Of a stretch of 64,000 nucleotides of DNA, positions 53,517 through 55,697 are shown piece after piece. This DNA is from Escherichia coli O127:H6 str. E2348/69 (lineage in GTDB: Bacteria > Pseudomonadota > Gammaproteobacteria > Enterobacterales > Enterobacteriaceae). The position numbers and the translations under genes are program-made. Position 1 is the stretch's first letter; every line of letters starts with the position of its first letter. The notes under the pieces were generated by a model. The model worked only from the letters and a program-made list of their open reading frames with translations. It was not told the origin of the DNA and searched no databases. Location of the stretch: NCBI RefSeq assembly GCF_000026545.1, contig NC_011601.1; one strand, written 5' to 3'.

Positions 53517-53544
53517 TAGATGGGGGGGATTTTGAGGGTTTCAA
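53517..53544 (-). promoter_or_regulatory. sigma32 heat-shock promoter of hslVU (TTGAAA -N13- CCCCATCTA)
   Basis: minus strand reads TTGAAAccctcaaaatcccCCCCATCTA, matching the sigma32 -35/-10 consensus; the -35 overlaps the ftsN stop codon. Confidence 0.65.
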
Positions 53545-54425
53545 CCCCCGGCGGCGAGCCGAATGCAGTTTGTATGACCCGCCATCTTCAAGCGATTGAG
53601 GGTGCTGTCTGCGTTCTCTTTGCCTTTCACCGGGCCAATCACCACACGATTCCAGCCATTGTTGGTGGTAATTTTTGAGTCAAAGCCTTCGAACGCCAGC
53701 TGAGCACGTACCGTCTCTGCCTGTTCCGCGCCTCTGAACGAACCGCACTGCACCATCCAGCGGCGTTCGTCTTTTTTCTCCGCCGTCGGTTTTGGCGCGT
53801 CAGCGGCACGAGCAACCGGCGCAGCTTGCTGCGGCTTCGACTGCGCGGTCGTGTGCGCAGGGGTTTGCAGCAGATCCTGGTACGGCTGCTGAGTAGAAGC
53901 CGGTTTAGACTGGCGCGGTTGCGCCTGTACCGGCGCGGCTTGCGACGTACGCGTCTGCTGCTGCCAGCTTTGTTCAGTCGTACGCGACTGCTGAGCCAGG
54001 CGTTGCTGCTCCGCTAATTGCTGCGCCTGACGCTGGCGCATATCAGCCTGCATTTGCTCAAGAAGCTGGCGTTGTTCTGGTGTCAGTTGCTCCGGCGTTT
54101 TCACTTCACCACCGGCAGAAGGTTCTGTAGGCGCACGCACACCCGGCTGGCGACTTTCCAGCTCTTTGATGTAGCGCCAGCGTTCTTCTGGTTTTGGTGG
54201 TAGTCCGTTTCCGGTCACTTTCTGGCTTTGCAGCGTCTCGGACTCTTCTTTCTTGTGATGCGTAATGAAGTACAGACCACCGATAAAGGTCACAAGAACG
54301 GCGGCAGCAATAGCGACCATAGCGGGAGAAACCGCAGGCAGATTTCGTTGCTTTTTCCGTGAGGTGCTCTTTTTTCGCCGCGAAGGTGCCGGTTGGCTGC
54401 GGCGTACATAATCTCGTTGTGCCAC
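53541..54425 (-). CDS. ftsN: cell division protein FtsN (shorter Gln-rich linker than the K-12 form)
   Basis: 294 aa, MAQRDYVRRSQPAPSRRKK, TM helix, C-terminal SPOR domain. Confidence 0.9.
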   Translation of the reverse strand: MAQRDYVRRSQPAPSRRKKSTSRKKQRNLPAVSPAMVAIAAAVLVTFIGGLYFITHHKKEESETLQSQKVTGNGLPPKPEERWRYIKELESRQPGVRAPTEPSAGGEVKTPEQLTPEQRQLLEQMQADMRQRQAQQLAEQQRLAQQSRTTEQSWQQQTRTSQAAPVQAQPRQSKPASTQQPYQDLLQTPAHTTAQSKPQQAAPVARAADAPKPTAEKKDERRWMVQCGSFRGAEQAETVRAQLAFEGFDSKITTNNGWNRVVIGPVKGKENADSTLNRLKMAGHTNCIRLAAGG

Positions 54426-54516: not shown

Positions 54517-55542
54517 TTAAGGTAACGCGCGTGTTGATCCCCGGATGATAAGTTCGCAGTCCATTAAACGAGAGCCACTGCCAACGTGTTGCCCCTGCAT
54601 TTGATCAAGCAATAACAGCATAGCTTCCCGACCGATTTCGTAACGCGGCTGCGCGATGGTTGTCAGCGGCGGATCACAAAATTGCGTCAGGTCGATGTTA
54701 TCAAAACCGATTATGGAAAGGTCTTCCGGTACTTTCAGCCCCTGGCGTTTTGCCTGCGAAAGTGCGCCGAGCGCCATCACATCGCTATGGCAGAAGACAG
54801 CAGTAGGCGGTTGTGGAAGATCAAGCAGCTGTTGCATTGCTTTGCTTCCGGCTTCGAAGGTGAAGTCGCCACGGGCGATGTATTGCGGATCAACCATAAT
54901 GCCGCAGCGACGCAGCGCCTGAACGTAGCCTTGCAGGCGGTAGTGACACAGCGGCATCTCTTCGGGACCGGCTATACAGCCAATCCGTTTATGCCCTTGC
55001 TCATATAAATAATTTACTGCATCAAATGCGGCGGTCAGATTGTCGATATGAACTGTAGGCAGCTCCAGTTCCGGTGCAAATTCGTTCGCCATCACCATCG
55101 GCGGCAGATTACGCTGTTCCTCAATGCTGGCATCAAACGGCAGCCTTGAACCCAGCAGCAACATGCCATCAATTTGCTTGGTGATGATCAAATCGATAAA
55201 GGTTTTTTCCTGCTGATTTTGATGCGCACAGTCGCCAATCAGCACCAGATATCCGTGATTTGCCGCCGTAACTTCGATACCGCGAATAATTTCGCTAAAG
55301 AAAGGGTCGCAGATATCCGGGACAATCACCAGAATAGTGCGGGATTCATTACGCTTGACGTTGCGCCCCATAGGCTGTGGTAAATAACCCACTTCCCGGG
55401 CCGCTTTTTCAACCCGATTACGAGTGGTCTGGGAGACTTTATCGGGATTCATTAATGCTCGGGAGACGGTCGCTGTAGAGACTTTTGCCTTGAGGGCAAC
55501 GTCTTTCATGGTCGCGGCAGTTTCCTGCTTCTTCGCTTTCAC
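54517..55542 (-). CDS. cytR: LacI-family repressor CytR
   Basis: 341 aa from a GTG start (MKAKKQETAATMKDVALKAKVS). Confidence 0.9.
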   Translation of the reverse strand: MKAKKQETAATMKDVALKAKVSTATVSRALMNPDKVSQTTRNRVEKAAREVGYLPQPMGRNVKRNESRTILVIVPDICDPFFSEIIRGIEVTAANHGYLVLIGDCAHQNQQEKTFIDLIITKQIDGMLLLGSRLPFDASIEEQRNLPPMVMANEFAPELELPTVHIDNLTAAFDAVNYLYEQGHKRIGCIAGPEEMPLCHYRLQGYVQALRRCGIMVDPQYIARGDFTFEAGSKAMQQLLDLPQPPTAVFCHSDVMALGALSQAKRQGLKVPEDLSIIGFDNIDLTQFCDPPLTTIAQPRYEIGREAMLLLLDQMQGQHVGSGSRLMDCELIIRGSTRALP

Positions 55543-55697
55543 ACTCACTCCTCGCCTGGCACGTCAGGCGTACTACATCCATGTTTACTTCACATCGGCA
55601 ACATTTTTAGCAGATAGCGCGTGAAAACGGTTACAGAATTTTCATGAAAAGTGTGATGAATATTGAATTTTTCGATCCGCCTCGCATCGTGAGCGGT

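Follow-up and report, generated by a model that had tools for sequence, protein, structure and literature searches.

A rare in-frame 75-bp deletion between short direct repeats in ftsN of Escherichia coli E2348/69, which probably recurs independently in other lineages

Deletions between short direct repeats, which are formed by replication slippage or by short-homology recombination, have a classic anatomy, in which one copy of the repeat is kept. Spontaneous deletions of this kind were reportedly described in the lacI gene of E. coli by Albertini et al. in 1982, and a RecA-independent, slipped-strand form of such deletion in the same species is said to have been described by Bzymek and Lovett in 2001.

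The published map of FtsN (Boes et al. 2020, PMC7939390) places a cytoplasmic tail at residues 1-33, a transmembrane (TM) helix at 34-53, the helices H1, H2 and H3 at 62-67, 80-93 and 117-123, the domain EFtsN at 75-93, an "unstructured Q-rich linker" at 129-225, and the SPOR domain at 243-319. EFtsN is essential, and sufficient when overproduced, and the SPOR domain is non-essential (PMC7939390 and other published FtsN work); the role of W83, Y85 and L89 in the essential domain is likewise taken from published FtsN work. An engineered FtsN 1-130 (Boes et al. 2020, PMC7939390) has established that the core activating function does not depend on the sequence beyond R130, and the periplasmic EFtsN alone suffices for it according to Gerding et al. 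(2009), as cited in other FtsN work. Published FtsN work also reports that a triple mutant of the conserved residues of helix 3 complements normally, and that its effect when D5N is used to sensitise the cells is no more than two-fold. In the published view, the long flexible linker allows the SPOR domain to seek denuded glycan near the synthase, and our literature searches for experimental work on the length of the linker, or on deletions in it, returned only general statements of this long-flexible-linker type.

The window, i.e., the whole stretch of 64,000 nucleotides analysed here, comes from E. coli O127:H6 str. E2348/69 (NC_011601.1), an EPEC strain, and carries on its minus strand an open reading frame (53541..54425) with cytR upstream and hslV-hslU downstream, as seen from the ORF listing and the neighbouring genes, which is the canonical chromosomal context of ftsN (cytR-ftsN-hslV-hslU). 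The GTG-start reading frame, this context, a C-terminal Pfam PF05036 SPOR domain at residues 221-288 (E = 6.8e-18), and the megablast annotation, with a gene annotated ftsN found in 5,425 of 5,426 complete E. coli genomes, together identify the reading frame as ftsN. Residues 217-294 match PDB 1UTA, the solved SPOR domain of FtsN, with a sole difference at the first aligned residue, and the protein has the bitopic topology of FtsN, with a basic tail that includes D5, one TM helix, and residues 1-53 the same as those of K-12. In an alignment of 39 FtsN sequences, P76, P79, W83, Y85 and L89 are invariant, and conservation is at least 90% both at D5 and Y6 and at L114, E117, Q118, L122, Q124 and D128 of the helix-3 block. 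The ftsN matches occupy one place per complete E. coli genome at the median. The ORF call for the neighbouring cytR (window 54517-55548, minus strand) reaches a GTG start that gives 343 aa, and the RefSeq protein has 341 aa (1,026 bp) in all the related genomes, which is a trivial start-codon difference. The features of the ftsN locus are as follows.

53541..54425, minus strand: ftsN coding sequence, Δ(132-156) allele, 294 codons plus TGA, GTG start; RefSeq WP_000068850.1.
54327..54425, minus strand: cytoplasmic tail, residues 1-33 (the FtsA-binding part), identical to K-12; limits from PMC7939390.
54267..54326, minus strand: TM helix, residues 34-53, identical to K-12; AlphaFold2 (AF2) helix 34-56.
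54147..54203, minus strand: essential domain EFtsN, residues 75-93, including W83, Y85 and L89, intact in comparison with K-12.
54033..54086, minus strand: residues 114-131, with helix 3, the half of the second conserved block of the periplasmic part that this allele keeps; from the 39-sequence alignment.
54032-54039, minus strand: deletion junction, the sole kept copy of the 8-bp direct repeat GCGCCAGC, gene nt 387-394; the plus strand reads gctggcgc.
53973..54080, minus strand: one unbroken helix predicted by AlphaFold2 at residues 116-151 of the 294-aa protein.
53775..54032, minus strand: remaining linker, residues 132-217 (K-12 157-242), which varies in sequence and length between genera.
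53544..53774, minus strand: SPOR domain, residues 218-294 (K-12 243-319), identical to K-12.

An earlier note on this DNA, made without database searches, had put the K-12 protein at 319 aa and had described the FtsN of 294 aa as about 25 residues shorter, with its N-terminal cytoplasmic/TM part and SPOR domain intact. The pairwise alignment with K-12 ftsN, which it had named as the test, bears this out at the level of both DNA and protein, given that the lengths differ by a single in-frame gap of exactly 75 bp, or 25 aa, against both an MG1655 derivative and SCU-115 (each 960 bp and 319 aa), with no other difference in length from either of them. The two intact ends are identical to K-12, the essential domain is intact too, and the gap falls where it had been placed (…EQMQADMRQ/RQAQQLAEQQ…). 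The peptide absent from the window protein is QPTQLVEVPWNEQTPEQRQQTLQRQ, residues 132-156, which the repeat permits to be written equivalently as 130-154. The rest of the window gene matches SCU-115, the closest full-length allele, at 100% identity, and the protein differs from that of K-12 by one substitution, T versus S at K-12 position 203. Among the ftsN matches listed, every one, including that of SCU-115, spans 960 bp and aligns in two pieces.

The cause that is visible at this site is the repeat. The ftsN of SCU-115 has perfect copies of GCGCCAGC at gene nt 387-394 and 462-469, whose spacing of 75 is the length of the deletion; a deletion made in silico between the two copies yields the exact 294-aa protein, and the junction in the window holds exactly one copy, with neither filler nor scar. 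One copy and the intervening sequence would thus have been lost from a full-length ftsN, probably through replication slippage or short-homology recombination, of which a single repeat copy at the junction, together with the 75-bp spacing, is the signature. The homology between the copies varies among backgrounds, with 7 bp (CGCCAGC) in that of RM7190 (B1) and 6 bp in K-12 (GCGCCA, with the right copy GCGCCAAC), and 16 of 30 evenly spaced genome rows match through the last base, so that about half of E. coli have the G that completes the 8-bp repeat. As for a contribution of secondary structure, the 103-nt parental region folds as single-stranded DNA at -20.3 kcal/mol (z = -1.04), and 29 of 200 shuffles fold at least as well, a result that leaves hairpin-promoted slippage unsupported. 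The GCGCCAGC repeat alone is the visible cause of the deletion, and nothing further accounts for its recurrence at this site.

Only one strain among the complete genomes has the deletion, which is therefore a rare allele rather than a common length polymorphism. Over the 22 kb of window positions 42000-64000, three complete genomes show 100% identity, namely E2348/69, "E2348/69 variety 2", and an engineered derivative of variety 2, and the next best match (99.4%) has a full-length ftsN. A junction-spanning 43-mer, window 54015-54057, designed so as not to seed on full-length ftsN, matches 3 of the 5,426 complete E. coli genomes, all of them E2348/69 assemblies, and the 75-bp segment is kept in 5,422, which with the three carriers make up all 5,425 genomes that have ftsN. 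The polymorphism of length proposed in the earlier note is, on these counts, not one in the sense of common variation, and the survey across E. coli that it had called for did return many rare in-frame indels of the linker, but found the 294-aa allele in just those 3 of the 5,426 complete genomes. Two of the ftsN matches are to records that bear a plasmid label, and one of the 5,426 genomes labelled E. coli is without any ftsN match. The original GenBank protein, CAS11785.1, carries the same 294-aa allele, which is thus already public, annotated simply as FtsN (WP_000068850.1), and no paper that pairs FtsN with E2348/69 was found in the literature searched. What is new is minor, namely that the allele is private to E2348/69 among complete genomes, that the same repeat gives rise to it recurrently, and that it removes a conserved stretch.

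The recurrence became visible in a collection of 15 billion proteins, in which the exact 294-aa protein is found on 18 contigs, in five nucleotide backgrounds, of which one is identical to the window and the other four (L004-L007) differ from it by 55-148 positions over 6,885 bp, with 4-11 synonymous differences inside ftsN itself, on both sides of the junction. Another pair of 294-aa variants, P0007 and P0008, which differ by an additional substitution or two, share this DNA junction in backgrounds that are different again, so that the identical junction is present in at least six nucleotide backgrounds besides that of the window. Pairwise comparison of all the deletion backgrounds gives 55-165 differences per 6,885 bp, 3-14 of them within ftsN, flanking the junction on both sides. 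The backgrounds were also compared with full-length complete genomes from which nt 394-468 (75 bp) had been taken out, and each of L004-L007 then shows 0 differences over 6,885 bp to a full-length relative, these relatives being of different lineages, as listed here.

L004: relative RM7190 (O91), from pig faeces.
L005: relative ATCC 11775, the type strain.
L006: relative CFSAN061763, from raw-milk cheese.
L007: relative SK1144.

These comparisons are read most simply, and by a wide margin, if the same deletion arose independently in at least 5-7 lineages, and each of the occurrences looks recent, given that no divergence has accumulated in the flanks. The GCGCCAGC site is, in this sense, a deletion hot spot. 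A rearrangement of another type was seen in the same neighbourhood in strain 23779 (H117, NZ_CM190130.1), in which an ISEc52 (IS3-family) insertion lies within priA-cytR-ftsN-hslVU-menA, and the match is in three pieces that extend over 8.2 kb.

The deletion begins just past H3, at the start of what the literature calls the Q-rich linker. The location in a low-complexity linker, which the earlier note had proposed, holds to the extent that the lost residues lie within the published limits of 129-225, but the segment is a conserved stretch rather than one of purely low complexity. Conservation was scored, as the mean fraction of residues identical to that of E. coli, in 39 full-length FtsN proteins with 88% down to 28% identity. 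The values obtained were 0.87 for EFtsN (75-93), 0.73 for residues 114-131, 0.53 for residues 132-144, 0.28 for residues 145-156, 0.12 for residues 157-172 (66% gaps), and 0.55 for the SPOR domain (243-319), so that the first half of the lost peptide scores 0.53 versus 0.55 for SPOR. Residues 132-144 (consensus PTxLxEVPxN) close the second most conserved periplasmic block, 114-144, across the Enterobacterales, and residues 145-156 (TPEQRQQTLQRQ) hardly vary among Escherichia, Citrobacter, Salmonella and Enterobacter. The hypervariable linker starts at about residue 157, and it is from exactly there that a divergent 315-aa allele of E. coli swaps its sequence.

AlphaFold2, run with the 39-protein alignment, gives for the full-length protein a helix at 116-129, a loop at 130-145 and a helix at 146-171, with pLDDT values of 88-90 over residues 151-170, and for the 294-aa allele one continuous helix at 116-151, with pLDDT of 84-93. 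In the model, helix 3 of the deletion allele is thus predicted to run on into what is, in the full-length protein, the distal part of helix 146-171. The lost residues comprise the end of the conserved block after helix 3, the loop, and the first 11 residues of the predicted downstream helix. Residues 114-171 as a whole, of which the window keeps the part at about 53973-54086, combine a conserved LTxEQRQLLxQMQADMRQxPTxLxEVPxN with the confidently predicted helix 146-171, inside the so-called unstructured linker, and the literature found describes no function for them beyond the minor helix-3 effect.

The 294-aa allele is one of several rare variants in length. A close-homologue search returned a dominant 319-aa cluster of 4,156 member sequences, together with rare E. 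coli and Shigella proteins of 349, 341, 331, 307, 301, 292, 289 (three), 285 (two), 281 and 270 aa, all of whose changes in length map between residues about 119 and 243; the 281-aa variants are on 18 and 6 contigs. The DNA that encodes the linker contains nine exact direct repeats of 8-9 bp, and the reading frame is preserved in events between them because all of the spacings found are multiples of three. Deletions and duplications between repeats were simulated, and the products compared with the natural variants, with the following correspondences.

CAGGCGCA repeat, spacing 102 bp: gives 285 aa (P0010).
CTCAGCAG repeat, spacing 102 bp: gives 285 aa (P0013).
GCGCCGGT repeat, spacing 114 bp: gives 281 aa.
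CAGCAGC repeat, spacing 147 bp: gives 270 aa.
Imperfect TPEQRQ-coding repeat, spacing 90 bp: gives 289 aa by deletion and 349 aa by duplication.

Duplications are also present in natural isolates. For example, the complete genome of APEC E18005 (NZ_CP126946.1; L017:3001-3993) encodes a 330-aa FtsN with an 11-aa tandem duplication, TTEQSWQQQTR, which corresponds to a 33-bp unit between CGCGTACG repeats, and the 341-aa variant P0003 has two extra copies. In-frame slippage between repeats, the mechanism suggested in the earlier note, is thus in keeping with the 8-bp GCGCCAGC that flanks the lost 75 bp and with the many similar rare indels, but it would have to be the slippage of a specific pair of repeats, and not the simple slippage of a low-complexity tract.

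Other alleles of the linker have a different character. The divergent 315-aa FtsN is found on hundreds of E. coli contigs (P0017, P0021, P0022, P0012, P0014), with an E. fergusonii-like Q-rich stretch in place of K-12 residues about 157-205, and 14 complete genomes in the 90-95% identity band of the ftsN megablast are listed with this allele. The 314-aa forms have the look of mosaics, and so point to breakpoints of recombination within the linker. Finally, the 282-aa P0039, on a 4.85-Mb contig, has an internal out-of-frame stretch of linker (…PASTSSRTRSAANPCAHDRAVEAAAAPVARA…), is annotated from an internal Met, and looks like a compensated double frameshift.

Taking these observations together, the ftsN of E2348/69 bears a genuine in-frame 75-bp deletion, which very probably arose between the repeats, has recurred independently elsewhere and is tolerated, being near-neutral or slightly deleterious rather than favoured. 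An artefact of sequencing or assembly, or an error of annotation such as a wrong start codon, is extremely improbable, given that the same allele is present in three independently assembled complete genomes as well as in the original GenBank record, that the gene has the same start codon as the 319-aa genes and agrees with them at both ends, and that an 8-bp repeat is too short for an assembly to collapse; the concurrence of the three E2348/69-derived assemblies with CAS11785.1 excludes an assembly artefact in particular. The identity of the junction in all carriers, and the existence of ftsN alleles (L011 and L012) only 3 bases away from that of the window, could also be read as a single ancient deletion allele that spread between lineages by homologous recombination. 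L004-L007, however, have lineage-specific synonymous sites close to the junction repeat, within 6-25 bp on the left side and from about 90 bp on the right, and each matches full-length genomes of the lineage to which it belongs at every one of the 6,885 bp. Recombination from a single origin would need imported tracts shorter than about 100 bp, which is the reason for preferring independent origins, and with the full-length relatives at 0 differences and the lineage-specific SNPs in the flanks it was rejected as very unlikely.

A more serious possibility, although on balance a doubtful one, is that the deletion is a strictly neutral polymorphism of a hypervariable, low-complexity, Q-rich linker, which floats freely in E. 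coli. The annotation of residues 129-225 as an unstructured Q-rich linker (PMC7939390) would favour it, as would the dozen or more other in-frame variants of FtsN length in E. coli, the variation between genera from 314 to 336 aa by way of the linker, and the health and robustness of E2348/69. On the other hand, a freely floating allele is hard to reconcile with a deletion found in just one strain among 5,426 complete genomes, with occurrences whose full-length relatives are identical over 6,885 bp, so that the alleles are young and unspread, or with the loss of the conserved residues 132-144 rather than the hypervariable 157-172. The opposite reading, in which a shortened or rigidified tether, or the loss of the 132-144 motif, evolved in parallel under positive selection in some niches, is unlikely. 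It would draw on the identical change in at least 5-7 unrelated backgrounds and on a lost segment that is conserved and predicted to be partly structured, so that its loss could have a phenotype, but the 8-bp repeat is a sufficient mutational cause, the other pairs of repeats nearby also yield rare variants, which points to variation driven by mutation, there is no clade-level expansion among the complete genomes, and the relatives (from pig faeces, a type strain, cheese and clinical isolates) have no evident ecology in common.

A tolerated deletion, near-neutral to mildly deleterious, therefore remains the most likely reading, on the basis of the viability of a widely used strain and of what is known of the domains. 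The deletion leaves untouched the tail with its D5, the TM segment, W83, Y85 and L89, the SPOR domain, and those residues of helix 3 that are conserved, and it is because all the parts known to matter are intact that the shortening and the local fusion of helices are expected to be tolerated. The 294-aa protein would still activate FtsWI/FtsQLB and still bind denuded glycan through a tether about 8% shorter (25/319 residues), and the cells would divide; that it supports cell division may be inferred, since E2348/69 is viable and no other copy of ftsN was found in it. The neutrality assumed in the earlier note is plausible, but a mildly deleterious but tolerated deletion is at least as likely as a strictly neutral one, because residues 132-144 are conserved, the allele is rare despite its recurrent supply and is confined to the tips, and no older deletion-bearing clade was found among the complete E. 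coli genomes. As these residues are as conserved as the SPOR domain, the segment presumably does something, and its deletion may carry a cost or a specific effect. A bolder proposal, which we regard as quite unlikely, is that residues 114-171 are a functional helix-loop-helix module, either a secondary contact for FtsI or PBP1b or a spacer between EFtsN and the glycan bound by SPOR, that Δ132-156 would convert into one rigid helix, with an altered timing of constriction or behaviour of the envelope that was selected in particular hosts; if this were true, the FtsN of E2348/69 would be a natural separation-of-function allele.

These results do not overturn the current understanding of FtsN, given that the mutation is of an ordinary type, and their practical value is modest. 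Those who work with E2348/69, or who use the K-12 numbering of FtsN, should note that residues 132-156 are missing from this strain. The recurrent allele is also a natural experiment, which indicates that cells are viable without the conserved stretch that follows helix 3 and without the first part of the predicted helix, and ftsN offers a clean natural case of hot-spot deletions at 8-bp repeats in an essential gene.

In comparison with the systems already described, the FtsN of E2348/69 shares with that of K-12 (319 aa, WP_000068828.1) the same gene, the cytR-ftsN-hslVU context, the tail, the TM helix, EFtsN, helix 3 and the SPOR domain, and is 100% identical outside the gap to the common allele WP_000068834.1, and it differs from both in the absence of residues 132-156 (75 bp). 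The other natural variants of E. coli and Shigella are, like the 294-aa allele, rare in-frame indels that are mostly reproduced from in-frame direct repeats, but they involve other pairs of repeats and remove or duplicate other segments, and the 294-aa allele is the variant that is fixed in a reference pathogen strain. With regard to the engineered proteins, the natural deletion starts right after Q131, near the endpoint of FtsN 1-130 (Boes et al. 2020), but keeps the SPOR domain and most of the tether, with expression from its own locus, whereas the engineered truncations lack SPOR or need overproduction.

The likeness to the deletions reported for lacI and for slipped-strand events lies in the 8-bp flanking repeat, the single copy kept, the length equal to the spacing, and the recurrent endpoints. 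Unlike those cases, the ftsN events are natural alleles of an essential division gene, drawn from genome collections rather than from a selection experiment, and may have arisen by slippage that is independent of RecA.
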